Shown piece after piece: positions 6,534 through 36,835 of a DNA stretch of 64,000 bases (position 1 is the stretch's first letter; every line of letters begins with the position of its first letter). The notes beneath the pieces were generated by a model that saw nothing but the letters and a program-made list of their open reading frames with translations, did no database searches and was not told the origin of the DNA. Origin of the DNA: Gemmatimonadota bacterium (GTDB lineage: Bacteria; Gemmatimonadota; Gemmatimonadetes; Longimicrobiales; RSA9); NCBI GenBank assembly GCA_040905425.1, contig JBBDRO010000106.1, positions 10,710-74,709 on the forward strand. Direction: 5' to 3'. Position numbers and translations under genes: made by a program.

Positions 6534-7201
6534 CAGAGGGTTCGCCGCCGGGCCAGCACCACGCCGGCCTGCAGGTTGAAGAGCGGATCCGCGTTCTCTA
6601 CGGTCGTGAACTGCAAGCCCGCGCCGCCGAAGAGGCGCCCGCGACGGAGCTGGATGCCCAGGGCGGTGCCGAACTCAGTGCTGTTTTCCTCGGTGCGCGT
6701 GTGGACGATGGCGCCGGGCGGCAGCGCCACGGTCACGGCCCGGCTGATGAAGATCTGCGGTGTGGCATGGACGGTGAGGACCGAGTTCTCCTCCGTGACC
6801 AGGGCCAGCCCAACGCCCAGGAAGAACGGCAGCGCGGTTTCACTGAGCTCGAGGGATCCGTGTTGGGGATCCTGGATGTCCATGGAGGCGTGCTCGATCC
6901 CCATGCCGGGACAAATGGAGACATCACCGAACCGGTATTCGATCCCCGCGCGGCCGGCTATGACGTCCAGATCCTGGTCCAGGCCGTCAAGGTCCACGCG
7001 GGCCACGCTGCCCTGCGCCCAGAGCGGAAAATCGGCCCGTCCCGTGAGCTCCGCCCCCAACGCGCGCTGGCGCTGATTGGACGCCAGCGTGGCCGCGAGC
7101 GCCAGACCCATGCCGTCCAGCGCGCCACCCACGCACGCCTGCGCCGCCGCGGCCGCGGGCGCGGCAGCCAGCAGGACAACGGTCAGCACTGCGCGCAGCA
7201 T
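6533..7201 (-). CDS. Hypothetical secreted protein, possibly a small outer-membrane beta-barrel
   Basis: 222 aa from ATG 7201, which overlaps the DPP-IV stop (TGATG). It has the signal 'LLAAAPAAAAAQA' and alternating hydrophobic beta-strand-like segments. I recognise no family. Confidence 0.5.
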   Translation of the reverse strand: MLRAVLTVVLLAAAPAAAAAQACVGGALDGMGLALAATLASNQRQRALGAELTGRADFPLWAQGSVARVDLDGLDQDLDVIAGRAGIEYRFGDVSICPGMGIEHASMDIQDPQHGSLELSETALPFFLGVGLALVTEENSVLTVHATPQIFISRAVTVALPPGAIVHTRTEENSTEFGTALGIQLRRGRLFGGAGLQFTTVENADPLFNLQAGVVLARRRTL

Positions 7202-9321
7202 CACGATGCAGCGCGCTCCAGCATACGCGGCCGCAGCACCAGCTCCTCGATGAAGAATTCCATCATGCGGTCCGGGTTGATGCCCGAGTGGCCGCGATCC
7301 GGACCCACCATCACCTCGAAGCTCTTGCCTGCGCCCTGCAGCGCCTGGATGAGCTCCATGGACTGCGAGGGGTGGACGTTGTTGTCCGCCGTGCCGTAGT
7401 AGATCATGAGGCGGCCGCGCAGATCCTCGGCGTACGTCATGGCGGAACCGGCGTCGTAGCCCGCCGCGTTCTCCTGCGGGATCCACATGTAGCGCTCGGT
7501 ATAGATGGTGTCATAGTGGCGCCAGTCGGTCACCGCCGAGCCGGCGGAGCCTGCCTGGAAGACGTCGGGATAGCGGAGCACGGTGAGCGCCGCCACGTAG
7601 CCGCCGTAGGAAGTGCCGAACACACCCACGCGCTGGCCGTCCACGTAGGGGCGCGTGGCCAGGCTGCGCATGCCCGCGGCGAAGTCATCGATTTCCGTGG
7701 TGCCGAGCTTCTCGTAGATGGCGTCCAGCGCACGCTTGCCCTTGCCCGAAGCGCTACGGGCGTCCATCTGCACCACCAGGAAGCCGTATTCGGTATAGGC
7801 GTGCGGCGTGCTGAAGGTCTCGCGTGCCCCGTTCGAGCCCGGGCCGCCATACACGCTGAACAGCACCGGGTAGCTGCGCGCCGGGTCGAAGTCGGACGGC
7901 TTGTGCAGCATGCCGTGCAGCTCGGTGACGCCGTCGGCGGCCGTGAAGGTGAACAGCTCCACCGGCTCCAGCCCCAGTTCGTGGAAGCGGCTGAGGTCAC
8001 TCTTGGCCAGCACCGCGAGTTCGCGGCCGGAGGCGTTCCGCAGGCGCGTCACCGGCGGCTCGGCGTGCGTCTGGGCCACGTCCACGAAGTGCCGCGCGTC
8101 GGGCGCGAGCGAGACGGCGTGGTTGAACGCGGGGTCCGTGAGGCGCACGTCCCCCGTGCCGTCCAGCCCCACCCGGTGGAGCTGGAGCTTCATGTGGTTG
8201 TCCCCGGAGCGGGCCCTGTACCAGAGCGTGCCACGCGCCTCGTCCACGCGCTCGATACCGGCCACCTCGAAGGGGTGGTCGGTGAGCGTGGCCAGCAACT
8301 CCCCGCTGATGTCGTAGAGGTAGTAGTTGGCGTAGCCGGTGCGCTCGGACTCCCAGATGAAGCGGCGGCCGTCCTCCAGCCAGCGCACCGTGGGGCGGTT
8401 GTCCGTCCAGCTGGCGGGCCACTCCTCCCGGACGATCACGCGGCACGCGCCCGTCTCCGGGCTGCACGCCGTGAACTCCATCACGTTCTGGCGTCGGTTG
8501 GTGCGGTTCAGCAGCAGTTCGCTGCCGTCCGGGCTCCAGGCCACGTTGTAGGCATAGTGGCCCACCACGTCATTGGTGAATGGCTGGCCATCCCGCAGGC
8601 CGATCCTGGTGGTGGCGCCGCTGGCCAGATCGTAGACGAAGATGTCCACGATCGGATTGTCGGTGCCCGCCTTGGGATAGGCCTCCACGTCCATGGTGCT
8701 CTGGATCCGGGTCTGGTCGAGCTGCAGGTAGTAGTCCGCCACCGGCTTCTCGTCGAAGCGGTAGTAGGCCACCCTGGTGCTCTGCGGATTCCACCAGATG
8801 GCGGTGCGCTGCCCCAGTTCCTCACCGTAGACCCAGCTGGCCGTGCCGTACTTGATGCGGTCGGCCTCGCTGCCGTCCGTGGTGAGCTGCCGCTCATTGG
8901 CGCCGCTGGCGCTCCGTACCCAGAGGTTCCGGTCCCGGTAGAAGGCCTCCAGTTGCTCGTCGGGCGAGGTGGCCGACGTGAACTGCCGCCCACGGGCCGG
9001 CGCCCCGCCGCCGCCGCGCTCCGGCTGCGTGGTGCCCACCGGTTCCTCCACGCGCGTGGCCGTGCGCGTGGCCACGTCGTACCGGTAGAGGTCCCCGGCC
9101 CGCCGGTAGGTAAAGGACGCGCCGTCCTCGGCCCACTGCGTGTTGAGCGCGCCGGATACCACCGCGTCCCGCAGCAGCGGAACCATCTCCGTGTAACGCT
9201 CGTAGCCCGGATAGGTCCGCAAGCGGTCCTGCGCCGCCAACGGTTTGACCGGCAGGGTAACGATGATGATGGCCAGCGTGGCGAGCCACGCGGCGCACCG
9301 CATTCCGAGGCATCGGTTCAT
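7201..9321 (-). CDS. Dipeptidyl-peptidase IV (S9B prolyl oligopeptidase family)
   Basis: N-terminal DPPIV propeller region plus the catalytic triad context 'GTSYGGY', 'GTADNNVH' and 'RGHSG'. The track start 9372 is a GTG. ATG 9321 (MNRCLGMRCAAWLATLAIIIV...AAQD) gives a normal signal peptide. Confidence 0.85.
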   Translation of the reverse strand: MNRCLGMRCAAWLATLAIIIVTLPVKPLAAQDRLRTYPGYERYTEMVPLLRDAVVSGALNTQWAEDGASFTYRRAGDLYRYDVATRTATRVEEPVGTTQPERGGGGAPARGRQFTSATSPDEQLEAFYRDRNLWVRSASGANERQLTTDGSEADRIKYGTASWVYGEELGQRTAIWWNPQSTRVAYYRFDEKPVADYYLQLDQTRIQSTMDVEAYPKAGTDNPIVDIFVYDLASGATTRIGLRDGQPFTNDVVGHYAYNVAWSPDGSELLLNRTNRRQNVMEFTACSPETGACRVIVREEWPASWTDNRPTVRWLEDGRRFIWESERTGYANYYLYDISGELLATLTDHPFEVAGIERVDEARGTLWYRARSGDNHMKLQLHRVGLDGTGDVRLTDPAFNHAVSLAPDARHFVDVAQTHAEPPVTRLRNASGRELAVLAKSDLSRFHELGLEPVELFTFTAADGVTELHGMLHKPSDFDPARSYPVLFSVYGGPGSNGARETFSTPHAYTEYGFLVVQMDARSASGKGKRALDAIYEKLGTTEIDDFAAGMRSLATRPYVDGQRVGVFGTSYGGYVAALTVLRYPDVFQAGSAGSAVTDWRHYDTIYTERYMWIPQENAAGYDAGSAMTYAEDLRGRLMIYYGTADNNVHPSQSMELIQALQGAGKSFEVMVGPDRGHSGINPDRMMEFFIEELVLRPRMLERAAS

Positions 9322-9438
9322 GTGGGTGCCTGTTGGGTTCGCGAAACGGGGCGGGGCAGGGGGAGGCTGCACCGTGGACCACTGTATACAGAACCCCGAA
9401 GGATGTGTTTCGTTGGCGGCGTGGGCAAGCCCGGGTAG

Positions 9439-10629
9439 CTAGGGTTTGAGGATCCGGTACGCGCGCAGGAAGCCCAGTTCGCGCTCACCCGACTCCAGGA
9501 GCAATATCTCCCCGTCCCGGAAACCCACGATCCGGGCAGTAAACGGCAGGATGATTTCCGCCAGGCGTTGCCCCTGGCGGGAGTAGACCACCCAGCGCAG
9601 CTGCTCACCCGGCAGATCGAGCGACGGTACGGCCAACCACAGGTTGCCGTCCGCGTCCGCCACGACCTCATGGAAGCGCGGCGCGGAATCCGGGAAAACG
9701 CCCTCCATCTCCGCGGGGGGGACGATGTCCGGGTCGTCCGCCACGCCCAGTTGCACGACCAGCCGTTCGTAGAACGCCGTCTGGGCCGCGCGGTCCATGG
9801 CGGTCGACGGCTCGCCCACGGGTATGGTGTCCCGCACGGTGCCGTCCGGCGCCAGCACCTCAAGCAGGGGCTCGTCGCCGCTGCCCACCACGAGTTCGTG
9901 GTCCACCACCGTGTAGGCCAGCGGAGCCGGCATGTGGGAGGATTCCAGCCGGCCACCCTCGAGGCGCACCACGCGGTGCGCGAATTCACCGATCGTGTCC
10001 AGTAGCTGGCCTTCGGCCGACAGGTGAAGCAGGGCCGCGCGCCCGCGGCGCGCACCGACCCCCTCGACGGCTACGAAGGTCCAGCCCTCGGCCAGGAAAC
10101 CGCCATCCGCGAAGGCGTCCACGATGCCTGCCCCCCTGTCGATCGGCTGCCAACCGGCGCGCGCGGTGAGGGGGGCACTCATCGGCACGCTTCGTCCGAA
10201 GTTGCCCGTCGTGTCCAGGATGGCCACGCGCGCCTGATCGACCACGGCAAGCGAATCCCCGCGGTAAGGAAACACGCCACGAATGAACTGGAAGCGGTCC
10301 GGCCCGTTGCCCCGGCCGCCGAACGTCCTGATGAGCTGCCCATCCGCCGTAAAGATCCGGACCATCCGATCCGCCTGCGTGGCCACCACCAGCCGACCAT
10401 CCGGCAGCTGCGCGGCGCCCGTGACCGCCCGCAGCGAGTCGAGCGCCTCACCCTCCAATGCGCTTATGGACAGAGACGGCTCGGGCGCCAGCGCCCAGGT
10501 CCCCGGTGCAGGCGCCGCGGGCGGCGGGCTGTCAGGCGTAGGGGGACCGTCCTGGCCACATCCGCTGGCAAACAGGATGACCGTGAACACGAGCGCGCAG
10601 CGTCTTGTGATCATTGGGCTCATATCCAT
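9439..10629 (-). CDS. NHL-like 6-bladed beta-propeller lipoprotein, paralog P1
   Basis: Lipobox 'LFASGC', a degenerate NHL-type 'GGRGNGPDRF' motif, and the family C-terminal strand '...LGFLRAYRI'. ATG 10629 overlaps the DinB stop (TGATG). The track start 10632 is a TTG. Confidence 0.65.
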   Translation of the reverse strand: MDMSPMITRRCALVFTVILFASGCGQDGPPTPDSPPPAAPAPGTWALAPEPSLSISALEGEALDSLRAVTGAAQLPDGRLVVATQADRMVRIFTADGQLIRTFGGRGNGPDRFQFIRGVFPYRGDSLAVVDQARVAILDTTGNFGRSVPMSAPLTARAGWQPIDRGAGIVDAFADGGFLAEGWTFVAVEGVGARRGRAALLHLSAEGQLLDTIGEFAHRVVRLEGGRLESSHMPAPLAYTVVDHELVVGSGDEPLLEVLAPDGTVRDTIPVGEPSTAMDRAAQTAFYERLVVQLGVADDPDIVPPAEMEGVFPDSAPRFHEVVADADGNLWLAVPSLDLPGEQLRWVVYSRQGQRLAEIILPFTARIVGFRDGEILLLESGERELGFLRAYRILKP

Positions 10630-11168
10630 CAAGCATTCATCGGTGCAAGGTAGCGCGCCTCGAGAAGGGTCCGGTGGTGAAGTTCATGGCCGGCAATGAT
10701 CCATGCCAGCGCCCGTACCGTGACGGCCGCGCCGCTGGCCTGACCGCCCCGCGTCCATGCTTCGGGCGGCAGGCCCTGGAGGAGCGCCGAGGTGGCGGCG
10801 CGCACCGCTTCGAACTCCGCCACGAGGCTGGGCAGCGTGCGCATTTCGCAGCCGGCCGCCGGCGCCCACAGCTGCTCGTCGAAAGAGGCCAGCGGCGTGC
10901 CGTCCCCGCGCGCGAAGCGGAGGATCCGGTAGGCCATCACCCGCTCCGTATCGGCCATGTGGGCCACCACCTCCTTCACGCTCCACTTGCCTGCCGCGTA
11001 GCGGTGCTCGTGCAGGTTGGCGGGCGCCGCCAGCAGCAGCGCCGCCGTATCGGTTATCTGCGTGCGCAGCGTGGCGCGGACGTCCCCATCGGGGACCAAC
11101 CCCACGTAGCCGGCGTAGTACGGATTATATTCGCCGTCGGCGGGGCGGCTGCTCGGTGGTGTGCTCAT
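10629..11168 (-). CDS. DinB-family (DinB_2) metal-dependent protein
   Basis: Has 'KWSVKEVVAHMADTERV' and a C-terminal 'AGHELHH', consistent with the DinB four-helix-bundle His triad. It overlaps both neighbours (ATGA at 11165..11168). Confidence 0.75.
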   Translation of the reverse strand: MSTPPSSRPADGEYNPYYAGYVGLVPDGDVRATLRTQITDTAALLLAAPANLHEHRYAAGKWSVKEVVAHMADTERVMAYRILRFARGDGTPLASFDEQLWAPAAGCEMRTLPSLVAEFEAVRAATSALLQGLPPEAWTRGGQASGAAVTVRALAWIIAGHELHHRTLLEARYLAPMNA

Positions 11169-12358
11169 CCCGACTCCTCGTGCCCGGTGGTGGGTAGCCG
11201 GAAGCGCACGATGCGCTGGACGTCCAGCTCACCCGTCTCGATGGCGTAGGCCGCCTCCCCGCGGATGGCTCCCTGCGTGAGATCCACGTTCGCCGGCACC
11301 GCCACCGCGAAGCTGGGTGCGCCGGAACGCTCGTAGACATCCGCTCGCACGTGCGTGTCTCCGTCGGCCGGGGTGCGGAGCACCCACAGCCTGCCGTCCA
11401 GATCGAAGAAGATATCCCGCAGGACGGGCTTGCGCTCCTGCACCGTGGCCCGGTGCGACACGGTGGCGCCCATGCGTTCGAAGCTGGCTTCGTCGCTGGC
11501 CAGCTTGGCCGCGGCGCTGTCCCGCTCCGCCGGGGAGAGCAGGGGGCCCTCGTCAGGGCGGCGTACGTGCGCGATGGTGTCACCCGCCTCGTTGAAAACC
11601 ACCACCTCGTAGCGCCGCGTCACGGCATACGCGAAGCGCCCGTCGGGGGCGTGAGCCACGCGCTCCGACGCCTGGAAGGGGACGGAGTTCCAGAGCTGCT
11701 GCACCCGGCCGGGGAGCACCTCCAGGGCCACTTCCACCATGCCGAGCAGGCGGGGAGGGGTATTCGGCGGATAGACCCGCCGGAGGACGGCTCCCGTGGA
11801 ATCCACGTGCAGCCGCACGGGACGGGTGCTGTGGCTGCTGTCCACCGATTCGCGCGCATGCGCGATCAGGTGGCCGCCGGCGGCGAAGGACGGCGGTCCC
11901 GCACTCAGCAGCTCGTCGGCGGACGTGATGCGGAACACATGCCGCTCGGTGGCCGCATCAACGTCGAATACGTCCCAGCGCGTTGCCTGCGGTGCCATGC
12001 TCCACACCCAGAGCCGGCCCGCCGCATCGAAGCCGGGGCAGCACGGCCGCGCCAGATCGCCCGGGCCGCTGCCGGAGCGTCCGAATCGGCGGACGAGCTC
12101 CCCCGCCGGCGTGAACGCCCGTACGTCGACCGCCTGACCATCCACCACCCAGACGTGCCCCTCGGCGTCCAGCGTCAGACCGCTGATGCGCCCGAACACC
12201 CGGTCCGGGTCGCCATCCAGCACGCCGATGCGCAGCTCCACCGCCAGCGTGTCCGGACCCGCGAGGGGTTCCGGCCGTTCGTCCGCGGGGCCGGCGCACG
12301 CGGCCGCGAGCAGGAGCCCGGCCCCCAGCATCCCGGAGCGAACTCGGCGGCGGCTCAT
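11165..12358 (-). CDS. NHL-like 6-bladed beta-propeller lipoprotein, paralog P2
   Basis: The track ORF 11165..12931 is a fusion artefact. ATG 12358 (MSRRRVRSGMLGAGLLLAAAC, lipobox) overlaps the stop of 12355..12816 (ATGA). It carries 'GRSGSGPGDL' and the C-terminal 'ELDVQRIVRFRL'. Confidence 0.65.
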   Translation of the reverse strand: MSRRRVRSGMLGAGLLLAAACAGPADERPEPLAGPDTLAVELRIGVLDGDPDRVFGRISGLTLDAEGHVWVVDGQAVDVRAFTPAGELVRRFGRSGSGPGDLARPCCPGFDAAGRLWVWSMAPQATRWDVFDVDAATERHVFRITSADELLSAGPPSFAAGGHLIAHARESVDSSHSTRPVRLHVDSTGAVLRRVYPPNTPPRLLGMVEVALEVLPGRVQQLWNSVPFQASERVAHAPDGRFAYAVTRRYEVVVFNEAGDTIAHVRRPDEGPLLSPAERDSAAAKLASDEASFERMGATVSHRATVQERKPVLRDIFFDLDGRLWVLRTPADGDTHVRADVYERSGAPSFAVAVPANVDLTQGAIRGEAAYAIETGELDVQRIVRFRLPTTGHEESG

Positions 12359-12816
12359 TGCGCCACCCGCCGCAGTCCGGGATGACGGTAGGTTGCCAGC
12401 AGGCCGAAGAGACCGATCTGCACCATGGTGCCAGGGGCCAGCGCCGGGGTGGCGCCACGGAGCGTGGCCCACATGAGCGCGAGCCCCTGCATATCGGGGT
12501 ACATCTCCAGTTCGAACTCCATGTTGCCGGTGTAATGCAGCCAGAGGCCCAGCAGGCCGCCCAGGATGCAGGCGGCCATGACGGCGCGCAGCGCGAGCAG
12601 AACACCGCGGCGGGGGAGCGCCAGCGCGGCCACCGCCGCGGCAAGCCCCGCCGCCAGGAGCACGATCGGAACCCACTGGGACAGGTCCTCGTAATGGCCC
12701 AGCAGTACGAGTTCGATGCCGGTGCCCAGAATGCCCAGGATCAGCACGATAAGGAGCAGGCGCCGGAGGTGCGGGGCGCCGGGGTCGGCCGCTGTGACTG
12801 GAGAAGTCGTGGTCAT
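12355..12816 (-). CDS. Hypothetical integral membrane protein (about 4 TM helices)
   Basis: 153 aa from ATG 12816 (MTTTSPV...). There are four long hydrophobic segments. It is the first gene of an overlapping four-gene operon. I recognise no family. Confidence 0.5.
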   Translation of the reverse strand: MTTTSPVTAADPGAPHLRRLLLIVLILGILGTGIELVLLGHYEDLSQWVPIVLLAAGLAAAVAALALPRRGVLLALRAVMAACILGGLLGLWLHYTGNMEFELEMYPDMQGLALMWATLRGATPALAPGTMVQIGLFGLLATYRHPGLRRVAQ

Positions 12817-12990
12817 GGCTGGTGGTGCGGGTGCGCAGGTCAGAGACAGGTATAGCGCGCGGCCGGCGCTCGCGACAGAGTGGCACGCGTGGCCCACCGG
12901 AGCAACCCAACGGGCTGGTCCGGCATCCCATGGACGCCCATCATGCCGCGCGAATACGCGGGAACGTGATTCTCAAGTAGGAGTTCCAAT

Positions 12991-14172
12991 ATGCGACGAT
13001 GCTCGTCCACCTCCCTTGCCACGGCCGCCTGCGCGGCCCTGCTGGCCGCGTGCGGCGGCCCGGACCAGGCGGCGGTGCCCGTCGAGCGGACCGACTCCGC
13101 CGGCGTGGAGCTGGTGCGCAGCCTGGGGCCCGACGTGCCGCTGGACTGGACGTTCGAGACGGTGCTCACGCTCGGCGGCAAGGATGAGGGACCCGAGGCG
13201 TTCTATCAGGTCGGCAACACCGGCATCGGTACGGACGCGGCCGGCAACATCCACGTCCTGGACGGGGGCAACGGCCAGGTGCAGATCTTCGGGCCGGACG
13301 GCGCGCACCTGCGCACTGTGGGCCGGCGCGGGGAGGGGCCGGGTGAGCTGGGCCAGTTCCTCTACGGCATGGCCGTGGCGCCGGACGGCGCCATCGCCGT
13401 ATTTGACGCCATGAAGCGGACGCTCGTGCGCTGGGACGCCGCTGGCCAGGTCCTGCCGAGCATCGAGGTGGCGGGTCAGCCGAGTGGCCGGTTCGCGCTG
13501 CTCGACGACGGCTCCGTCATGGCCACCCTCCGCGACGGCGCCTACCAGGGAGACAGCGCTCGCTATGTCCTCCGGATCCTGGAGCCCTCCGGTGCCACCG
13601 AGGATCTGCTGGCCATGTTCGCGGCGCCGCTTCAGCCGGTGGACTTCGAGTGCGTGATGATCAGCGGTATGGCGCCGCTCTTCCAGCCGGAGATGCGCTT
13701 CGACCGGGCGGGTAGCGGGCTCGTGGTGTCGAGCGGACCGGACTACCGGGTGGAGGGCAGGAAGCCGGATGGCGCGGTGCACCGGGTGGTGAGCCGTGAC
13801 CTGCCCCCCGTGGCGGCCACCGCCGAGCTGGCAGCCATCGAATCGGACAGTATGACGGTCCGCTTCGGTGACGGGCGTAGCTGTGTGGTACCGGCCGACG
13901 AGGTGGTGGAGCAGCGCGGCTTCGAGCCCGTGGTCCCGGCCGTGCGCCAGCTCGTGGGCGCCCCGGACGGCAGCTTCTGGGTGCAGCGCGGCTACGGCAG
14001 CGAGCGGCGCGTCATCGATGTCTTCGCCGCGGACGGGGCCTACGTGGGCACGCTCCCGGCGGGCACGCCCTGGCCCGCCGCACTGCTGGATGGGGAGACG
14101 TTGCTGGTGCGTACCACGGACGAGTACGATCGTGAGATGGTGGAGGTGCGGCGCATCGTGCCGGGGTCCTGA
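12991..14172 (+). CDS. NHL-like 6-bladed beta-propeller lipoprotein, paralog P3
   Basis: AGGAG lies 7 nt upstream of ATG 12991. It has the lipobox 'LLAAC', 'TDSAGVELV', 'GRRGEGPGELGQF..GMAVAPDGAIAVFD' (NHL-like) and the C-terminal 'DREMVEVRRI'. Confidence 0.7.
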   Translation: MRRCSSTSLATAACAALLAACGGPDQAAVPVERTDSAGVELVRSLGPDVPLDWTFETVLTLGGKDEGPEAFYQVGNTGIGTDAAGNIHVLDGGNGQVQIFGPDGAHLRTVGRRGEGPGELGQFLYGMAVAPDGAIAVFDAMKRTLVRWDAAGQVLPSIEVAGQPSGRFALLDDGSVMATLRDGAYQGDSARYVLRILEPSGATEDLLAMFAAPLQPVDFECVMISGMAPLFQPEMRFDRAGSGLVVSSGPDYRVEGRKPDGAVHRVVSRDLPPVAATAELAAIESDSMTVRFGDGRSCVVPADEVVEQRGFEPVVPAVRQLVGAPDGSFWVQRGYGSERRVIDVFAADGAYVGTLPAGTPWPAALLDGETLLVRTTDEYDREMVEVRRIVPGS

Positions 14173-14190
14173 CCAGGAGGGTGGGAGCGG

Positions 14191-15411
14191 GTGGAGCAGA
14201 ACGAGCGCGGGACGTTTCAGGGGGACGTCGCTTACGAAACGATGCTGCCGGAGCCGCCACTGCGCGTGCCGGAAGGGGCGCTGGCGCGGCGGTTCGCGTG
14301 GATCGGGCTCGGCATGGCGGCCGCGGTCTTCGTGGCCGTGCTCATTGCCACGCAGAACTGGCTGGCGCTGGCCCAGGCCGGCGAGCCGGAACGGTGGCTG
14401 TGGATCTTTGCCATGGAGCTGCCGGTGTGGCTGGCGTGGGCGGCCGTGGCACCGCTCATCCTGCTCTTCGTGCGGCACTTTCCGGTGGCGGGCCGGCGAC
14501 GACTGCGCAATCTGGCGCTCCACCTGCCGTTCGCGCTTTTCATCGAGTTGCTTGCGTTCATGCTGCACAGCGTGGTGCGCTATCAGCTGGATCCCGGCGG
14601 GCCCGCGTCGGGGGGGTACTGGGACGTGGTCGCGGTGGGATATCCGCGCACCTTTGGCCTCTTCCTACTGGTCTACGGCGGCATCGTGGCGCTCTATCAG
14701 GCGCTGGCCTACTACCGCGCCTACCAGGCCCGTTCCATGGCCGAGAGCCGGCTGGAGGTGGAGCTGGCGCGCGCCGAGCTGCGCACGCTGCGCATGCAAC
14801 TCCATCCCCATTTCCTGTTCAACACGCTGCACGTGATCTCCGCCCTGATGACGCGTGACGTGGCCACGGCGCGCCGCATGATGCGGCGGCTGAGTGAACT
14901 GCTCCGCCTGACGCTGGAGACGGACTCGGCGCACGAGGTCACCCTGGAGGAGGAGCTGGCCATCCTGGATCACTACGTGGAGATCCAGAAGATGCGTTTC
15001 CAGGATCGGCTCACGGTGAGCGTGGAGGTCAGCCAGGAAGCGCGCGGCCAGGCGGTGCCCGCCTTGCTTCTGCAGCCCCTGGTGGAGAACGCTATCCTGC
15101 ATGGTGTGGCGCGCGTGGCCCGGCCCGGCCAGGTTGTCGTGCGCGGGGTGGTGGAGGGCCGGCAACTCCGCATTGCCGTGGAGGATAACGGACCGGGTCT
15201 GGCGCCGCGGTCCGACGATGATCGCGGGCGCGGGGGACTGGGCATCCGCAACACCATGGCGCGGCTGGCGCGGATCTATGGTCCGGGGGCCGCGCGCTTC
15301 TCGCTGCGGGAGCGGCCCGAGGGCGGTGCCGTGGCCGAACTGCGCCTGCCGCTGCGCTCGCGGGTGCCTGCCACAGATGCTCCAGCGGGGAGGGAGGGGA
15401 TCGATGAATGA
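14191..15411 (+). CDS. LytS/YehU-type sensor histidine kinase (membrane)
   Basis: About 4 N-terminal TM helices, then 'LRMQLHPHFLFNTLHVISALM' (the His_kinase PF06580 signature) and an HATPase_c region ('VEDNGPGL', 'GGLGIRN'). It starts 18 nt after P3. Confidence 0.85.
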   Translation: MEQNERGTFQGDVAYETMLPEPPLRVPEGALARRFAWIGLGMAAAVFVAVLIATQNWLALAQAGEPERWLWIFAMELPVWLAWAAVAPLILLFVRHFPVAGRRRLRNLALHLPFALFIELLAFMLHSVVRYQLDPGGPASGGYWDVVAVGYPRTFGLFLLVYGGIVALYQALAYYRAYQARSMAESRLEVELARAELRTLRMQLHPHFLFNTLHVISALMTRDVATARRMMRRLSELLRLTLETDSAHEVTLEEELAILDHYVEIQKMRFQDRLTVSVEVSQEARGQAVPALLLQPLVENAILHGVARVARPGQVVVRGVVEGRQLRIAVEDNGPGLAPRSDDDRGRGGLGIRNTMARLARIYGPGAARFSLRERPEGGAVAELRLPLRSRVPATDAPAGREGIDE

Positions 15412-16183
15412 CCAGGTCCGCGCGGTGATCGTGGACGATGAGCCGCTGGCCCGGGACCTCCTGCGGGGCATGCTGGAGAGCGTCGTCGAGGTGCGGGTGG
15501 TCGGGGAGGCGGGGGACGGAGCCGCCGCGGTGGAGTTGGTTCGCGGCGAGCGGCCGGAACTTCTCTTCCTGGATGTACAGATGCCCGAGCGGGACGGTTT
15601 CGACGTGCTGCGCGAGCTCGGGGAGGACGCGCCGCCGGCCGTCATCTTCGTGACGGCCTACGATCGGTACGCCCTGCGTGCGTTCGAGGTTAGCGCCATG
15701 GACTACCTGCTCAAGCCGTTCGATGAGGAGCGGCTGGAGCGCTCCGTGAGCCGGGCCGTGGCGGAACTGCGGGGTGCCGCGTCGGGCAAGGGGGAGGATC
15801 GGGTTGGCGAACTCCTGCGGCGGTTGGAACTGCTGGAGCGGAGGGAGCGGTACTCCGGGCGCCTGGCCATCACGCAGGGGGAGCGCACCTTCCTGCAGCC
15901 CGTACGGGACATCGACTGGATCGAGGCCGACGGCAAGTTCATGAACATCCACGTGGGGGAGAAGAAGTACACCATGCGCGCCACGCTGCTGGGCCTGCAG
16001 GAGCAGCTCGATCCGGAGGTCTTCCTGCGCGTCAGCCGGGGGGCGATCCTGAACGTGAATCGCATTCGCGAGGTGCAGCCCTGGTTCAACGGTGAGTACG
16101 TGGCCGTGATGCACAGCGGCGCGCAGGTGACCACCACGCGCAGCTACCGGGCCGCGCTCGCCCGCGTCATCGGCAAGGAATGA
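15404..16183 (+). CDS. LytR/AlgR-family response regulator (REC + LytTR DNA-binding domain)
   Basis: 'VIVDDEPLARDLL...LLFLDVQMPERDGFDV' is a receiver domain. The C-terminal '...IDWIEADGKFMNIHVGEKKYTMRATL..LEQLDPEVFLRVSRGAILN' is a LytTR domain. ATG 15404 overlaps the kinase gene by 8 nt. Confidence 0.9.
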   Translation: MNDQVRAVIVDDEPLARDLLRGMLESVVEVRVVGEAGDGAAAVELVRGERPELLFLDVQMPERDGFDVLRELGEDAPPAVIFVTAYDRYALRAFEVSAMDYLLKPFDEERLERSVSRAVAELRGAASGKGEDRVGELLRRLELLERRERYSGRLAITQGERTFLQPVRDIDWIEADGKFMNIHVGEKKYTMRATLLGLQEQLDPEVFLRVSRGAILNVNRIREVQPWFNGEYVAVMHSGAQVTTTRSYRAALARVIGKE

Positions 16184-24401: not shown

Positions 24402-25595
24402 TTACCGGTGGAGCGCGTACAGCGCCACCGCCTGCACCCCCAGCGAGTCCTCCTCCACCGCCAGCAGGCGATCCGTACCGATGTCCAGGATGCGCAGTGA
24501 GGCGCCCGGCGGCAGGTCTACATGGCCCAATCCGCGGCCCTCGGGATCCAGCAGGAAGAAGCGTTCGGGATTGTCCCGCACACGGGGCGGGTCCCCCACG
24601 TAGCGCGGCGTGTACTCCGCGATCCAGATGTTGCCCTCGGGGTCCGCCAGCAGGCCCTCGAAGTGCGGCAGCGGTTCCTGGATGGCCGCCTTCATGGTGG
24701 TCATGCGGCCGTTGATATCGGCGGCCGGTAGGCCGATCTCGGTGAATCGATCCCGCAGCGCACGCTCATACGCCGTCCAGAGCGAATCCGGCACCGGGAC
24801 GCTCGGCGCCTCCCAGCGCGCGATGCGCGTGGGTTCGCCGTCGGCGCCCAGCCAGCGCACCTCCGGCGCATCCCCGCGCCCCACCACCACCGTGCCCCCG
24901 GTGATCGTGGCGTGCCCCTGGCTCAGGAACGGGTTGTTGCCCCCGTAGTCCAGGCTCTGGTCCCAGTCCGCCACCGCCAGGGTGTCCACCACGCCCGTGG
25001 CCAGGCTCATGCGGACGAAGGGAATCGACAGCCATGGCGTCTCGTACCTGCGCCCGTACACCACGCCAGGAGGCATGCCGAACACGGCACGCCCCTCTTC
25101 ATCCGCTCCCAGCAGGCTCAGGTTGGCGGCGGGTCCCAGTTCCACGTCGCCCACCTGTTCACCGCCATGGAAGAGCGTAAGCCGGCGGTTCATGGCATCC
25201 TGCACCGCGATGGTGTCGGCCCCCAGGCGCTTCATGGCCAGAATGCGGCGGAATTCGCCCGGCCCCTGCCCGGGCCGGCCGAGCACGGCCTCGACTGCAC
25301 CATCGGAGGCCAGGACGCTCACCTGCAGCGTCTGCCCGCCGTCCGCGATGGCGGCGCCCCCGCCCTCCAGCAGAGCGCCGGCCACGATGTTCTCGAAGAC
25401 CGGCCCGGTTTCATCCCAGCCGACGCGCCACATGGGCTCTTCGGACACGCGCATGGGGGCGGCATCCGCCAGCGGCCAGGGGCTCTCCACCATGGAGATT
25501 CCGGCGCTGTCCCGAATGGTCACATGTGCGGACCGGGGTTGCCCGTCACCACAGGCGAGCAGGGCTGCGAGCAGAATGCCGATAGCTGGTTTCAC
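24402..25595 (-). CDS. NHL-like 6-bladed beta-propeller lipoprotein, paralog P4
   Basis: Lipobox 'LLAC', 'IRDSAGISMVE', 'GRPGQGPGEFRR' and the C-terminal 'GVQAVALYAL'. The GTG start overlaps the P5 stop (GTGA). Confidence 0.7.
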   Translation of the reverse strand: MKPAIGILLAALLACGDGQPRSAHVTIRDSAGISMVESPWPLADAAPMRVSEEPMWRVGWDETGPVFENIVAGALLEGGGAAIADGGQTLQVSVLASDGAVEAVLGRPGQGPGEFRRILAMKRLGADTIAVQDAMNRRLTLFHGGEQVGDVELGPAANLSLLGADEEGRAVFGMPPGVVYGRRYETPWLSIPFVRMSLATGVVDTLAVADWDQSLDYGGNNPFLSQGHATITGGTVVVGRGDAPEVRWLGADGEPTRIARWEAPSVPVPDSLWTAYERALRDRFTEIGLPAADINGRMTTMKAAIQEPLPHFEGLLADPEGNIWIAEYTPRYVGDPPRVRDNPERFFLLDPEGRGLGHVDLPPGASLRILDIGTDRLLAVEEDSLGVQAVALYALHR

Positions 25596-26407
25596 CGGTC
25601 ACCGGGCTGGATCCGGAAGCGCACCACGTACGCCTCATCGAACTCCCCACGCACCGTGGCCCAGACATCCCGGTCCACCACGTCGTAGAAGTAGGCGTTC
25701 GCCGGCAGGACCACGGTCCCCAGGAAGGTGCCGGTCGGCTCGAACACGTTCCAGGTCGGCTGTTCGCGCCACTCGTGGGGGGGCGCTCCGCTCGCGGGTG
25801 GCGGGCCGGTGCGCGGCCGGTGCACCGCCTCCACGTAGCGGCGTACCCAGATCCGTCCGCCGGCATCGGTGCGCAGGGTGCTGAAGGCCGGCTTCGTGTC
25901 CGGCACCGAATAGCTGCGGTCGCCGCTCCCGGCGCGCGCGAAGAACTCCGCCCAGGCCTCCCACTCCGCGTGCTCCGGTCCGCGCACGGGCAGGGGTGTG
26001 AAGGGCCGCTCGATGCGCAGCGCCGGCTCCTCGGTCCGCCGCAGCTCGAAGGCGTACGTGCGGTTGTGGCCGACCACCAGGTATCCGAGCGGGCTCAACG
26101 TGGTGACCAACTGCCTCGTGAAGGGCCGATCGTAGCCCGAGGCGGTGCTCAGCACGAAGGAGGGCGGAGTGCTCGGCTCCTCCGGGATCGGCAACCAATC
26201 GAGTACCTCACCCCCGGCGGAGAGGCGGATCCATACCTCCCCGTGGCGTTCGCGCGGATCGTCGGCGCCGTCCATTGTGCCGATGCGCACCTCCTCCACC
26301 AGCCGCGGCGCCGGCCCCCAGACGGGAGCGTTCGTGGCGCGCACGACCTGCGGCTGCTGCGCGGCGGCCGGAAGGGCGGTGGCACCCAGGACCAGAACCA
26401 GGGCCAT
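25592..26407 (-). CDS. Truncated/divergent member of the propeller family, paralog P5
   Basis: 271 aa from ATG 26407 (MALVLVLGATALPAAAQQ). It aligns only to the C-terminal part of the family ('...GRIWVRRY...', 'EFDEAYVVRFRI'). It lacks the lipobox and the GPGEF blade. Confidence 0.5.
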   Translation of the reverse strand: MALVLVLGATALPAAAQQPQVVRATNAPVWGPAPRLVEEVRIGTMDGADDPRERHGEVWIRLSAGGEVLDWLPIPEEPSTPPSFVLSTASGYDRPFTRQLVTTLSPLGYLVVGHNRTYAFELRRTEEPALRIERPFTPLPVRGPEHAEWEAWAEFFARAGSGDRSYSVPDTKPAFSTLRTDAGGRIWVRRYVEAVHRPRTGPPPASGAPPHEWREQPTWNVFEPTGTFLGTVVLPANAYFYDVVDRDVWATVRGEFDEAYVVRFRIQPGDR

Positions 26408-26499
26408 TGCCGCGCACCGCCGGGTGGGCGCGGCGCTGGAGGGCGCAGCGCTGAAGAACGTGGTGCTCGCCCTGGCATCCTGGACGCCGACCGCGCGGC

Positions 26500-29400
26500 T
26501 CACGGGATGCCGCCGGTGCGCGTCGGCGGCGTGACGGGCGGCCCCGGATCCGGCCGCAGCCCCGCCACGTAGACCTGGGCATAGACCGCCGGCGCGCGCG
26601 TGGTGATCCACTCGTTCAGCTCGGCCACCAGCCCGGGCGCCTCCTCCCAGGCCTCCTCGATGGCGTGGAGCTGGTCGGCGGTCGGCGGATTGTGCACGCC
26701 CTCGATGCCGAACATGAGCCGGGTGGCACCCGTGAGGGTGCCCATCCGCTGGCGCAGCTCGTTGAAGTCCGCGCGCGCGACCGTGACCTCCTGGCGCAGC
26801 GCGGCGGGGCCGTCCTCCACGTGCTCCGCCGCGGCCTGCAGCTGCTCGGCCAGGCGACTGACGGCCTGCCCGGCCAGGTAGGCGCTCTCCTGCAGCGCGT
26901 AGACGTCCATGGCCGCGCGGTGGCGCGCCATGAGGTCGGCCTCCGTGATGCGGGCGCGCGGATCCAGGCGCACCTCGAAGCGCTGCTCCTCAGCGCTGAT
27001 GCCGGGCCCCTCCAGCCGCGCCACGTAGGTGCCGGGCAGCACCTTCGGACCCGCCGCGCCGCCGCCGAAGCCGCCGCCGTCCTGGCCTTCCTCCGGCTCC
27101 ACGGCGGGCGCCATGCGCAGGTCCCAGAAGACCTCGTGCATGCCGGGCGTGCCCGGCACGTCCAGCGTCCGCAGCGTGGCGCCGGATGCGTCGGCGATCA
27201 CCAGCCGCAGCTCCGGCTCCTGGTCGTCGCTGTCCGCCGCCACCACGGCGTCCCCGCCCACGTGGTAGCGGATGCGTGCCCCGGTGGGCGGGTCGGGCAG
27301 TCCGAACGTGCCCGGCTCCCAGCCCTGCGGGGACCAGATGGTCCAGTCGGTGGCCCGCGGCACGGGGAAGAGATGCCCCGCCTTGGCCAGCGTGGCCTGG
27401 CTCATCTGCTCCAGCGGTGAGACGTCGTGCAGGATCCAGATGCCGCGCCCGTGCGTGCCCAGGATGAGGTCGTTCTCGCGCGGGTGCAGCACGATGTCGT
27501 CCACGGGCACGGTGGGCAGGCCCGCCTCCAGCTCCTGCCAGTTGCGGCCGCGGTCGATGGAGAACCAGAGCCCCGCTTCGTTGCCCGCGAAGAGCAGGTT
27601 CGGCGCACGCGGGTGCTCCAGGAAACCGTTCACCGATTCCATGGGCAGGCCGTTGGTAATGCGCGTCCAGCGCGCGCCGAAGTCCTCGGTGACGAAGACG
27701 TAGGGGTTGTAGTCATCCTGGTAGTGGCCGTCCAGCGTGACGTATGCCCGGCTCGGCGCGGCGGCGGAGGCGCGCACCCGCGTAACGTAAATGAGCGCCG
27801 GCACGCCCGGCAGGTTGTCCGTGACGTTCGTCCAGGTGGTCCCGCCGTCGCGCGTCACCTGCACGTTGCCGTCATCCGTGCCCACCCAGATGATGTCCGC
27901 ATCCGATGGTGATTCGGACAGCGTGGTGATGCTGCCGTAGTACGAGATCCCGTCGTTGCGCGAGAGCGTGGCGCCGGTCACACGCTCACCCATGATGGTC
28001 ATCGTGTCCCTGTCCACGCGGGCCGTGAGATCCGGGCTGATGGCATACCAGCTCTGGCCGCGGTCCTGGGAGCGGAGGAGGTAGTTAGAGCCCGTGAAGA
28101 TGGTGGCCGGATCGTGGTCGGAGATGCGCAGCGGCGTATTCCAGTTCCACTGCAGGCGGGTGTCCTCCTCGATGCCGTTGCCGGGGCGGGCGTCCGGCCG
28201 GATGCTCAGGCGCTCACCCGTGACCAGGTCCACGCGGCTGATGTTGCCGTTCTGCGACTCGGCGTAGGCCGTGCGCCAGTCCGTGGGATCCACCGTGGCG
28301 TAGAAGCCGTCGCCACCGTGGATGTTGAACCAGTGCTGGTTGCGGATGCCGTTCCGGTTCCAGACCGCCGTGGGGCCGCACCACGTGCCGTTGTCCTGCA
28401 GGCCGGTGCACACGTAGTAGGGGTCGCGCATGTCGTAGCCCACCTCGTAGGACTGCGCCAGCACGATGTTGTCATACATACGCCAGCTCTCCGCCCGGTC
28501 GAAGGAGACCGAGACGCCGCCGTCGCTGCCCATGATGAGGTGGTTGGAATTGTTCGGGTCGACCCAGAGGGCGTGGTGATCGGAGTGCACCTCGCGGGCG
28601 TCGCTGCGGAATTCGTAGCCGCCGTCATCGGAGATCATGAGTTGCACGCCGCCCAGGTAGACGCGTTCGGCGTCGTTCGGGTCGATGACCAGTTTGACGA
28701 AGTACATGGGCCGGGGGTTGGTGGTGCTCATGTGCTCCCACGTCTCGCCTCGGTCCCTGGAGCGGTAGATGCCCGACGCCTCACGCCCGCCCCCCTCCAC
28801 GCGGATCACCACGTAGTTCGGATCCTGGCGCCAGATGTCAATGCCGATGCGCCCCAGGTCTCCTTCCGGAAGGCCCTCGGTCAGCCGGGTCCAGCTGCGG
28901 CCGCAGTCCACCGTGCGGTACAGCCCGCTGCCCGCACCCGCGGCGCTGAAGCCGAAGGCCGTGCGCTGCCGCTGGTAGGCCGCCGCGAAGACGGTGCACG
29001 GATCGGCATGGTGCATGGCCAGGTCCGTCACACCCGTGTGCTCGTCGATGAAGAGCACCTTCTCCCAGTTCGCGCCGCCGTCGGTGGTCTTGTAGACGCC
29101 GCGCTCCTCGTTCGGCCCCCACAGATGCCCGACGGCCGCCACGTAGGCCACGTCGGGATCGGTCGGATGCACCTCGATCTCGCCGATGTGGCGAGTGGCC
29201 TCGAGACCCAGGTCCTGCCAGGTGCGGCCGCCGTCCACGCTGCGGAAGACGCCCGCCCCGTAGGGGGAGCTCTGCCGGTTCTGCGGCTCGCCCGTGCCTA
29301 CCCACAGCACGTTTGGATTGGAGGGTGCCAGCGCCAGCGCGCCGATCGACGCGGTGCGCTGGTCATCGAAGATCGGCTGGAAGGAAGCCCCGTGGTTCGT

Positions 29401-32025: not shown

Positions 32026-33981
32026 ATGCACACCCTCCCGCGACCCGCCGCGTCCCGCACGGCGCTGACGCTCACCTTCATGGCCACCGCCTGGCTGGCC
32101 GGCCTCGCCTGTCCCCGCGCGGTGGCCGCCCAGGAGAGCAGCTACGACGCCCTGGTGGAGATTGCCATCATCGAGGAGCTGGTGATGATGCCCATGCGCG
32201 ACGGCGTGCGCCTGGCCACCAACATCTACCGGCCCAAGAGCTCGGCGTCGGTGCCGGCACCCACGATCTTCGTGCGCACGCCCTACAACATGAACATGTG
32301 GCGCGACGGCGAGCATTCCACCGGCCGCTACGGCGCCATCCTGGACGCGGTGCGGCGCGGCTACGTCTACGTGAACCAGAACGAGCGCGGCCGCTTCTAC
32401 TCCGACGGGGAGTGGGACATCCTGGGACCGCCCCTCACGGACGGCTACGACGCCCTCAGCTGGATCGCGGACCAGCCCTGGTCGAACGGCAGGGTGGGGA
32501 CCTACGGCTGCTCGTCCACCGCGGAGTGGCAGATGGGCCTGGCCGCCCTGGACCATCCGGCCCACGCCGCCATGGTCCCCCAGGGCTTCGGCGCCGGTGT
32601 GGGCCGGGTCGGGGACTGGTACGAGCAGGGCAACTGGTACCGCGGCGGCGCCGAGCAGATGCTCTTCTTCACCTGGCTCTACGGCGTTCAGAACACGCAG
32701 CGTCCCCGCGTCGACCGGGACACGCCGCGTGAGGACCTGGTGCGGCTCTCCCGCTACTTCGACCTGGCCCCCGAGATGCCCGGCGTGGACTGGCCGGAGG
32801 CGCTCTGGCACCTGCCCGTCGAGGATCTCATGCGCAGCGTGGACGGGCCGCAGGGGATCTTCGCCGATCCCGCGCCCGTGGCCACCGGCGGGCGCATGAT
32901 CCAGCGCACGCCGAACGATCCGGCGTGGTACCGGGGTGGCCTCTACCACGACGACATGCCCTTCGGCGTTCCCGCCCTGTGGTTCATGTCCTGGTACGAC
33001 GTCTCGGTGGGTCCCAACCTGGCGCTCTTCAACCACGTGCGGGAGAACGGCATCGACGCCGAGACCCGTGCGAACCAGTTCGCGGTGGTGGCGCCCGTGG
33101 CCCACTGCGCCTACACCCGCGCCAGCCAGAACACGATGGTGGGGGAGCGGAGCGTGGGCGATGCCCGGTGGGCCTACGACGAGCTGATCTACGCCTGGTG
33201 GGACCGCTGGTTGAAGGGTGTCGAAAACCAGGTCACCGACACGCTGCCGGCGGTGCGCTACTACACCATGGGCTCCAACGAATGGCAGACCGCCACGGCT
33301 TGGCCGCCGCCAGCCGCGGAGATGGTCACCTATTATCTGGATTCCACCAGCGGCGCCAACACGCTCCGAGGCGACGGCGCGCTACGCACGAGCATGCCCG
33401 GGGCGGCCGGCTTCGACGCGTTCACCTACGATCCCGCCGACCCCGTCCTCTCGCACGGCGGCAACGTGTGCTGCATCGGCGGCGCCATCCAGGCGGGCGC
33501 CTTCGACCAGCAGGCGGTGGAGGCGGAGCGCGAGGACATCCTGGTCTACACCACGGAGCCCTTCACGGAGGGCACGGAGGTGAGCGGGCCCGTGGAGGTG
33601 CTGCTCTACGTGTCCTCGGACGCCAGGGACACGGACTTCACCGTCAAGCTGCTGGACGTGGATCCCGACGGGCGCGCCTACAACTTGGACGAGAGCATCC
33701 AGCGGGCGCGCTGGCGCGAGGGCTACGAAGGGGATCCCGTTTTCATGGAGCCGGGGCAGGTCTACCAGGTGAAGGTGGGGCCGCTGACCACCTCGAACCG
33801 CTTCCTGCCCGGCCACCGGCTGCGCATCGAGGTGTCCAGCTCCAACTTCCCGCGCTTCACGCGCAACCTGAACACGGGCGGCAACAACTACGACGAGACC
33901 GAGATGCGGGTGGCGCGCAACCGGGTGCACCACTCGCGCGAGCACCCCTCGCAGGTGCGGGTGCCGGTGGTGCGGCGCTGA
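32026..33981 (+). CDS. CocE/NonD family hydrolase (S15 X-Pro dipeptidyl-peptidase-like)
   Basis: 'IFVRTPYN', '[13 protein letters not shown]' (nucleophile elbow region) and the C-terminal '[22 protein letters not shown]' typical of the PepX_C domain. The signal ends 'AVAAQE'. Confidence 0.85.
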
Positions 33982-34362: not shown

Positions 34363-35526
34363 TCACCGTTTAAAGAGCGGATAGGCGCGCACGTACTCCA
34401 CGTCCATCTCGTCGCGCCACACCCCCAGCACGGCGGCCGTATCGATTGCGTGGACGGTGAGCCCCGCCGGCGTCTCCGCCACGCCCGCGAACGCGCCGTC
34501 CGGGTCGAAGACCCACCAGCGCACAGACCCCTCTTCCGGCTGGGCGTAGGGGCGGAGCCACAGGTGTCCCGCGGTGTCCACGCGGAGCGCCGAGAGCACC
34601 GGCTTGGTGTCGGGAAACGGCACCGCGTCCAGGCGAGGCAGGATCTCCTGCTCCAGCAGGGACGGCGGTACGCCGCTGATGTAACGCGCCCGGATGCTGT
34701 CCACGTCGGTGGCGTCCACCGGCTGGCCGACGGCGCCGCAACGGATGATGCGCTGCAGGCGGCCGCGCAAATTGTAGGACCGGACTTCGCAGGCGCTCGT
34801 GTCGGCAACATGGATGTTGGAATCGGTGAGCGTGTACAGGGCGGTCCGGCCGAATGGGCGGGTCAGCCCGTCGAACGTCTCCAGTCGGGGGATGCGGATC
34901 AGCGTGTCCCGCGTGCCGCCGGTGCCGAAGCGGACCAGCACGGAGGTGTCGCGGCGCAGCACCCGCGCCCCCGGCGCAACGTCGGCCGGTTTCCGTAACG
35001 AATAGACCAGCTCGGTGCCGAAGCAGCCCGCCACCGGCGGCAGCGACCCGCGATCCATCGGCGGCGCTTCAGCCGACTCGCGAAAAGCGCCATCTGCATT
35101 CAGCCGCGAGACCCGCGGGATCTGCAGGTCCTCGGCGATGAGCCCCGAACCGCACGTACGTACGGAGCGTAGCCGCCGGAATTCGCCCGGCCCGTCACCC
35201 TCGCCGCCCGCCGTGTGCAGGTGCCGCCCCGCGTCGTCGAAGAAGCGTAGTTCCGCGCCCTGAGCAATCAGCAGCCGCCCATCTGGCAGCCGGAGTACGC
35301 TGCGCACGCCGTCGAGCTGGTAGGCCGCCTCTCCGTCGATGGCGCCTATGGTAAGCGACGGCGTCGCATCCGCGCGCCACCGCACCTCCCCGTTCGCGGC
35401 GGGCGCCGGGTTCTGCACGATGCGGATGCCAGCGCTGTCGCGGACGGTGACGCCGCCTTGACCGACGTCGGTGCCGCATGCTGCTGCCGTGAAGAGGAGG
35501 AGCAACCCCGTTACCCGTACGTGCAT
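34363..35526 (-). CDS. NHL-like 6-bladed beta-propeller lipoprotein, paralog P6
   Basis: Lipobox 'TAAAC', 'VRDSAGIRIVQN', 'GGEGDGPGEFRR' and the C-terminal 'VLGVWRDEMDVEYVRAYPL'. It starts 3 nt after the P7 stop. Confidence 0.7.
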   Translation of the reverse strand: MHVRVTGLLLLFTAAACGTDVGQGGVTVRDSAGIRIVQNPAPAANGEVRWRADATPSLTIGAIDGEAAYQLDGVRSVLRLPDGRLLIAQGAELRFFDDAGRHLHTAGGEGDGPGEFRRLRSVRTCGSGLIAEDLQIPRVSRLNADGAFRESAEAPPMDRGSLPPVAGCFGTELVYSLRKPADVAPGARVLRRDTSVLVRFGTGGTRDTLIRIPRLETFDGLTRPFGRTALYTLTDSNIHVADTSACEVRSYNLRGRLQRIIRCGAVGQPVDATDVDSIRARYISGVPPSLLEQEILPRLDAVPFPDTKPVLSALRVDTAGHLWLRPYAQPEEGSVRWWVFDPDGAFAGVAETPAGLTVHAIDTAAVLGVWRDEMDVEYVRAYPLFKR

Positions 35527-36822: not shown

Positions 36823-36835
36823 CACCGCGTGGTGA

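Follow-up and report, generated by a model that had tools for sequence, protein, structure and literature searches.

We analysed a 64,000-nucleotide stretch of contig JBBDRO010000106.1 from a Gemmatimonadota bacterium, referred to below as the window. In it, the gene for a six-bladed NHL-type beta-propeller lipoprotein, P3, is followed on the plus strand by genes for a LytS-family sensor histidine kinase and a LytTR response regulator. These three genes are kept as a block in related contigs while their surroundings change, and P3 is therefore plausibly tied in function to the two-component system within one narrow clade. The explanation we favour, although only tentatively, is a clade-restricted envelope-signalling module in which P3 would act as the periplasmic partner of the kinase. 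Four genes face this operon across a short gap on the minus strand and encode a membrane protein with four helices (the 4TM protein), a second propeller lipoprotein (P2), a DinB_2 family protein and a third propeller lipoprotein (P1). The initial annotation of the locus had joined all seven genes into one unit, had taken the gap as the obvious target of the regulator and had drawn from the arrangement a regulated envelope function for the whole propeller family. Its gene map proved correct to the base in coordinates, gene annotations, junctions and operon layout; the comparisons reported here do not establish the seven-gene unit, the target of the regulator or the inference for the whole family.

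The P3-kinase-regulator operon

P3 (12991-14172, plus strand) is a protein of 393 residues with its lipobox cysteine at position 21, in the motif LAAC read from the sequence, and this cysteine is invariant across 40 aligned members of the family. The start of P3, like the ATG start and the 153-residue length of the 4TM protein, agrees with the NCBI-annotated protein of the source metagenome-assembled genome (Gemmatimonadota bacterium). The fold was tested on P3, for which the AlphaFold2 (AF2) model (pLDDT 92.9, pTM 0.88) is all-beta, with about 24 strands forming a six-bladed NHL-type propeller. Foldseek aligned this model with probability 1.0 to NHL domains and to PDB entry 4raa, at TM-scores of only about 0.5. 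The best structural and PDB-profile matches were to eukaryotic NHL domains, Bacteroides BF0058 (4raa, a DUF5128 structure), Vgb lyase and the sensor domain of PknD, and the family profile matched the NHL sensor domain of the kinase PknD (PDB 1rwi). P3 scored 25.8 bits against the Pfam family PF17170 (DUF5128; cutoff 22.9), for which, to our knowledge, no function is known.

The residues invariant in the 40 family members are blade Gly, Asp, one Pro, one Trp and Arg, with no invariant His or nucleophile set. Because such a set is missing, the alignment favours a role as a binder rather than an enzyme. Catalytic readings of the propeller (PAL-like, lactonase-like or Vgb-lyase-like) were set aside for the same reason and for the weakness of the matches. 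The family is large and already carries the label "6-bladed beta-propeller" in PGAP/NCBI annotation. A search of a representative library with the family profile was dominated by giant NHL-repeat proteins, and the resulting counts are too high for the lipoprotein family proper.

The kinase gene (14191-15411, plus strand) starts at a GTG codon after AGGAGG and encodes 406 residues. The protein matched PF06580 (His_kinase, E=1.5e-25) and HATPase_c (E=1e-7) in Pfam. Its H, N, G1 and G2 boxes are intact, and an alignment of 25 homologs shows no variation at H207, N300, D332, G334, G336, G349 and G351. Hydropathy places four hydrophobic helices in residues 35-173, connected by loops of at most about 25 residues, two of which, at residues 54-75 and 130-154, would be periplasmic, with no periplasmic domain, and the Pfam search (E<=0.01) found neither a 5TMR-LYT (PF07694) nor a GAF domain. 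Judged by the sequence of its catalytic core, the protein is a LytS-family (HPK8) kinase, not one with a LytS/BtsS-type sensor, and it belongs to a very large family (more than 5600 matches). As it has four membrane helices but lacks a domain for sensing in the periplasm, the kinase would be unable to bind a periplasmic ligand itself, and P3 is therefore the most likely candidate for a periplasmic partner.

The regulator (15404-16183, plus strand, 259 residues) combines a receiver domain (PF00072, E=1e-25) with a LytTR domain (PF04397, E=1e-20), and the receiver residues D11, D12, D57, T84 and K104 can be read from its sequence. Its best NCBIfam scores lie well under the equivalog cutoffs (BtsR, 150 bits versus 246; LytR, 143 bits versus 375), and it is not an ortholog of any named regulator. 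P3 and the kinase gene are spaced by 18 nt, and the kinase and regulator genes overlap by 8 nt (ATGAATGA). Together with the AGGAGG before the GTG and the lack of a terminator, this spacing points to a single operon. Overlaps of stop and start codons are usual in operons and are unremarkable in themselves.

In the mechanism that we envisage, P3 would bind an envelope ligand or protein in the periplasm and would modulate the kinase through its membrane-proximal loops. The kinase would then phosphorylate D57 of the regulator, and the regulator would act on nearby promoters, most plausibly those of its own operon and of the divergent 4TM-P2-DinB-P1 operon, perhaps extending to a downstream dipeptidyl-peptidase IV (DPP-IV) gene. 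The interaction between P3 and the kinase in this scheme is suggested by their co-operonic position and by their co-retention in relatives.

Retention in close relatives and loss beyond the clade

Only three related contigs were found, and they represent two distinct lineages: L002 and L003, which are near-identical to each other, and L001. P3 is 80% identical in L002/L003 and 65% in L001; the corresponding values in L002 and L001 are 92% and 76% for the kinase and 90% and 76% for the DinB_2 protein. The gene order in L002/L003 is DPP-IV, DinB, P2 and 4TM, then divergently P3, kinase, LytTR regulator and an aldolase; P2 is 82% identical there, and P1 is absent. L001 carries DPP-IV, a cupin gene, DinB, 4TM and an unrelated gene of 761 residues, then divergently an extracytoplasmic function (ECF) sigma factor gene, P3, kinase and regulator. 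It lacks P1, P2 and the aldolase, the 761-residue gene stands in place of P2, and the ECF sigma gene is inserted. No tblastn match to P1 was obtained in any of the three contigs. Two blocks persist throughout, namely P3-kinase-regulator and, on the divergent strand, 4TM...DinB followed by DPP-IV, and P1 and P2 are dispensable within the clade, being gained and lost. Of the proposed unit of propellers and a two-component system, the part made up of P3, the kinase and the LytTR regulator is thus kept in L001-L003, whereas P1 and P2 are not.

Two local features of L001 were recorded beside this block. The ECF sigma gene and the beginning of the P3 ortholog overlap (L001 7375-9179), and the regulator ortholog was called as two open reading frames (ORFs) at L001 10414-11201, a receiver of 169 residues and a LytTR domain of 93. 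The split reflects a frameshift, an assembly error or decay in that lineage.

Several observations weigh against reading P3 as a partner of the kinase. The P3-kinase link was observed in no more than three related contigs, and two of these are near-identical to each other. No kinase adjoins the P3 homologs at 41-48% identity, whose contexts are unrelated, and the outgroup kinases closest to ours (48-50% identity) retain a LytTR partner but have no propeller neighbour; two of them lie next to PF00144 genes. Among 80 further kinase loci from metagenomes, none has a member of the propeller family in its flanks; a LytTR gene lies directly downstream of the kinase in 69 of the 83 related loci (these 80 and three outgroup loci). 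The genes upstream of ten related kinases are heterogeneous and include PF00144 hydrolases, a TonB receptor and peptidases, a qualitative description drawn from ten long codon-biased ORFs, with ORF calling crude in high-GC DNA. The slot beside the kinase may hold whatever the system regulates. In addition, neither a repeat finder nor a spaced-repeat scan detected a LytTR-type repeat in the gap. Synteny conservation in related genomes, which the initial annotation had proposed as a check on its model, fails beyond the narrow clade whether approached from the propeller, the kinase or the 4TM side: the cluster was seen only at P3 identities of at least 65%, was lost at 41-48% and is not kept across distant taxa.

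Genes of the PF00144 (beta-lactamase/serine hydrolase) family recur beside outgroup kinase/LytTR pairs in three loci (L169 4241-7988, L170 1688-5533 and L115 4235-7053). The hydrolase gene overlaps the kinase start in L169, lies upstream of the kinase in L115 and lies downstream of the regulator in L170. An "exported hydrolase + LytS-family kinase + LytTR" unit may therefore be recurrent.

P3 is probably either the accessory partner of the kinase or its auto-regulated product. In the latter case P3 would be output only, the first gene of a positively auto-regulated operon whose two-component system senses a membrane or cytoplasmic signal by itself, and the job of the propeller would be unrelated to sensing. 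Positive auto-regulation is common in LytTR systems. The varied exported or envelope neighbours of related kinase-regulator pairs (PF00144 in L169, L115 and L170; the TonB receptor) fit a neighbour that is simply a regulated gene, and propeller family members elsewhere are tied to quite different regulators, as expected for regulated cargo. However, the kinase itself lacks an obvious sensing domain, P3 precedes it on one shared transcript instead of occupying a separate target operon, and no binding repeats for the regulator are detectable upstream of P3. We regard a purely output role for P3 as possible but somewhat unlikely.

The abundance of propeller genes in the window bears on a different explanation. 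A hidden Markov model (HMM) built solely from database homologs of P3, which is non-circular in that no window sequence was included, matched all three propellers over nearly their full length (P3, 4e-138; P2, 1.4e-27; P1, 4.7e-11), while P1 and P2 fell below threshold for PF17170 in the Pfam search. The same HMM matched four more window genes (24402-25595, 34363-35526, 35530-36894 and 36836-37930), again across almost the whole of each. The 64-kb window thus holds at least seven paralogs of the family, and some adjacency to regulators is therefore expected by chance. Pairwise identity is 23-28% among P1, P2 and P3, of which P1 is the most divergent, and 25-27% over the parts of them that align; it is 23-35% among the window paralogs. 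As P1, P2 and P3 share only 23-28% identity, the idea that they arose by a recent tandem duplication was rejected. They are ancient paralogs and not a co-evolving set, which counts against the model of the initial annotation: its assignment of P1, P2 and P3 to the same family holds in the sense of one divergent family recognised by a shared HMM, but not in the sense of a close set.

A 339-residue ORF (25592-26611, minus strand) lies directly upstream of the paralog at 24402-25595. It was matched weakly (7e-11) by a circular version of the HMM, which included the window paralogs, and not at all by the independent one. The ORF may be an eighth member of the family, degenerate or highly diverged, although this is doubtful.

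With so many paralogs per genome, the adjacency of P3 and the kinase could be a historical accident, the arrangement having been kept only through the close kinship of the three contigs. The density of paralogs, the lack of association outside the clade from the propeller, kinase or 4TM side and the free gain and loss of P1 and P2 are all consistent with this explanation. Yet in L001, at 65% protein identity, both flanks are rearranged and P3-kinase-regulator is intact and tightly spaced, and the 4TM and DinB genes also remain on the divergent strand. An accidental adjacency is therefore unlikely in our estimation.

The divergent operon and the intergenic region

The minus-strand operon begins with the 4TM gene (12355-12816), which encodes a protein of 153 residues with four membrane helices. 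It continues with P2 (11165-12358), an NHL-type beta-propeller lipoprotein of 397 residues with lipobox Cys21 in the motif AAAC; with the gene for the DinB_2 family protein (10629-11168), a cytoplasmic protein of 179 residues; and with P1 (9439-10632), an NHL-type beta-propeller lipoprotein of 397 residues with a TTG start and lipobox Cys25 in the motif ASGC. The lipobox-like motifs were read from the sequence. The 4TM/P2 and P2/DinB junctions are both ATGA. The DinB/P1 junction, TTGATG, gives a 4-nt overlap with the TTG start and a 1-nt overlap (TGATG) with an alternative ATG start, from which P1 would span 9439-10629. A gene for an S9 family DPP-IV (7201-9372, minus strand; DPPIV_N, E=3e-67, and Peptidase_S9 in Pfam) follows P1 after 66 nt in the same orientation, and the same gene is found downstream of DinB in L001 and L002. 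As its synteny extends to all related contigs, this gene may close the minus-strand unit.

The 4TM protein is the sole component of the locus outside known annotated families. At least 853 homologs and 355 genome matches were found, at 47-60% identity across phyla, in Gemmatimonadota, Latescibacterota, Rhodothermales, Acidobacteriota, Binatia and Planctomycetota. None of the sources that assign functions names any of these at least 853 homologs; the family has no Pfam match (35 members searched), no PDB sequence match by profile and no fold match by Foldseek of the AF2 model (pLDDT 90.2). Residues E35, H41, H94, N98, E100 and E104 are invariant in the family, together with a PALAPG motif, and this two-His/multi-Glu site within the membrane suggests metal or cofactor binding. 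The DinB_2 protein matched PF12867 (E=6e-20, 72.4 bits versus a cutoff of 24.8), and a weak match to YfiT lay far under cutoff. Its sequence offers H70, H161, H164 and H165 as candidate metal-binding His residues, and a hydropathy scan found no hydrophobic segment. PADLOC models run on all seven proteins gave 0 matches, and a defence-system reading of the locus was dropped.

The gap between the two operons (12817-12990, 174 bp) is presumed to be the promoter region for both. A consensus scan found neither a sigma-70-like promoter nor a terminator in it; the lone terminator-like site of that scan falls inside P2 and was disregarded. An Rfam scan of the whole window detected no RNA family. The sites bound by LytTR regulators are imperfect direct repeats of about 9-10 bp, arranged in pairs close to the promoter under control. 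The repeat finder returned no direct-repeat family in 12780-13010, and a mismatch-tolerant scan of the gap recognised no LytTR-type spaced repeat, which does not exclude binding; when up to one mismatch was allowed, the scan yielded a single pair of 9-mers, the GC-rich CGCGNGGCC, separated by 30 bp. The designation of the gap as the obvious target of the LytTR regulator is therefore an analogy and not a finding.

Phylogenetic footprinting of the gap, which rests on two independent relatives, pointed to two other elements. The corresponding gap of L002 shows 89% identity once a 41-bp indel is set aside. The element GCGACAGAG (GCGACAGRG; 12872-12880, plus strand) also appears in L002 and at two sites in L001, each time ahead of a gene on the minus strand; the 64-kb window has a single copy, where 3.2 would be expected. 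It is a candidate cis element upstream of the minus-strand operon, for which we regard the evidence as weak. The block GCATCCCATGGACGCCCATCATGCCG (12923-12948, plus strand) lies 43-68 nt upstream of the P3 start, is identical at 25 of 26 positions in L002/L003, is unique in the window and could not be recognised in L001; it is a candidate operator or promoter element. Neither element resembles a paired LytTR site.

These data also bear on the model of the initial annotation, in which the seven genes form one pathway, with the 4TM protein, two propellers and the DinB_2 protein placed under the LytTR regulator from the shared gap. The divergent layout with tight operons, the retention of 4TM...DinB opposite P3-kinase-regulator in L001-L003 and the conservation of GCGACAGRG upstream of the minus-strand operon all agree with such a pathway. 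However, P1 and P2 are not retained, the gap lacks a LytTR-type repeat and the 4TM family shows no comparable association elsewhere. In 80 genome loci of this family, a DinB neighbour was found in 0, a propeller neighbour in 2 (L016 and L034) and a LytS/LytTR pair in 1 (L018). Neighbour clustering of these loci revealed no conserved neighbour, with no neighbour family present in more than 18 of the 80, and DinB, propeller and LytS/LytTR neighbours are all missing beside another 4TM homolog, of 60% identity. A single seven-gene pathway is accordingly improbable.

At L016 1061-2204 (Gemmatimonadaceae; 4TM protein 56% identical), a propeller gene directly follows the 4TM gene on the same strand, the only such recurrence in the 80 loci.

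Other signalling modules and comparison with known systems

Elsewhere in the window, genes for BlaI (39519-39890) and a BlaR1-like M56 protein (37930-39522) precede three of the paralogs (36836-37930, 35530-36894 and 34363-35526) in one minus-strand array. Propeller family members are also co-operonic with ECF sigma factors in L001 and in L172 (6391-10567), where an ECF sigma gene is followed by two small genes and two propellers, with a third propeller just upstream. Of two other distant family members, one adjoins a MacB-type permease (L171) and one lies among metabolic genes (L173), and several members have no regulator nearby. It is suggestive that the family is often co-operonic with genes for extracytoplasmic signal transduction, but the partners differ each time. 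The BlaI/BlaR1 array confirms the presence of the second of the two signalling modules to which the initial annotation saw this family wired; the conclusion drawn from it is weakened by the varying partners and by the several members that lack a regulator. The broader argument, for a regulated envelope function rather than random scatter, is plausible given the BlaI/BlaR1, ECF sigma and transporter neighbours, but the association is loose and no more than suggestive.

Two side observations concern these neighbourhoods. At its C terminus, the BlaR1-like M56 protein has two repeats matching the Plug domain of TonB receptors. Exopeptidase genes (S9 DPP-IV, S15 X-Pro dipeptidyl peptidase, M14, M19 and M28) recur beside propellers, in the window (7201-9372, minus strand; 32026-33981, plus strand) and in L002, L172 and L173, which may merely reflect the peptidase-rich genomes of this phylum.

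A more speculative generalisation, which we consider quite doubtful, would be that the family supplies interchangeable periplasmic ligand-binding modules, each plugging into a different transducer (four-helix LytS-type kinases, BlaR1-like M56 proteins, or, in L001 and L172, pairs of ECF sigma and anti-sigma factors). On that view, P3 would represent the first propeller known to serve a LytS-family kinase as a stand-alone co-sensor. Except for the 4TM protein, the components of the locus come from known, already annotated families, and their arrangement is lineage-specific and routine and yields no general rule for the propeller family. As it stands, the locus, from an uncultured organism, is mainly one data point for a wider comparative survey. 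If P3 were a true co-sensor, it would give access to two questions: how signals are perceived by the "sensor-less" LytS-family kinases, which are very common in Gemmatimonadota, Bacteroidota and Acidobacteriota, and what role the large uncharacterised DUF5128/NHL lipoprotein family plays.

The model of the initial annotation assumes the logic of the agr system, in which the divergent promoters P2 and P3 of agr are controlled by the LytTR protein AgrA through sites made up of paired direct repeats. Both systems place a LytTR regulator beside a divergent promoter region; in contrast to agr, paired repeats are not detectable in 12817-12990, and the locus has no peptide-signal gene. LytS/LytR and BtsS/BtsR (YehU/YehT) share with the locus the PF06580 and HATPase_c kinase core and a regulator with receiver and LytTR domains. 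LytS and BtsS carry a 5TMR-LYT and GAF sensor, whereas neither domain was detected in the locus kinase, which has four helices only.

For a propeller in signalling, the nearest likenesses are Bacteroides BF0058 (4raa) and PknD (1rwi), which match P3 in profile or fold and are likewise exported proteins or lipoproteins. The PknD propeller is an extracellular sensor fused to a Ser/Thr kinase, whereas P3 is encoded separately, beside a histidine kinase. The LpqB-MtrAB system of actinobacteria offers a parallel at the level of the operon, as LpqB is a propeller-like lipoprotein encoded in a two-component operon and has been reported to modulate the kinase. LpqB and P3 belong to different protein families; the lipoprotein gene is last in that operon and first in ours, and the regulator there is of the OmpR type instead of LytTR.

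A close comparison can be made with FimS (AlgZ) of Pseudomonas aeruginosa, a four-helix LytS-family kinase with no periplasmic sensing domain and with the LytTR partner AlgR (PMC5979040). The output of FimS is modulated by envelope proteins, the minor pilins and PilY1, which are under AlgR control (PMC5979040). The two systems differ in that FimS lacks the canonical ATP-binding motif, whereas the N, G1 and G2 boxes of the locus kinase are intact, and in that FimS/AlgR involve pilins, whereas our locus has no pilin genes and the partner would be a separate NHL lipoprotein. Because envelope proteins set the output of FimS, it provides a precedent for the modulation of a four-helix kinase that we propose for P3.

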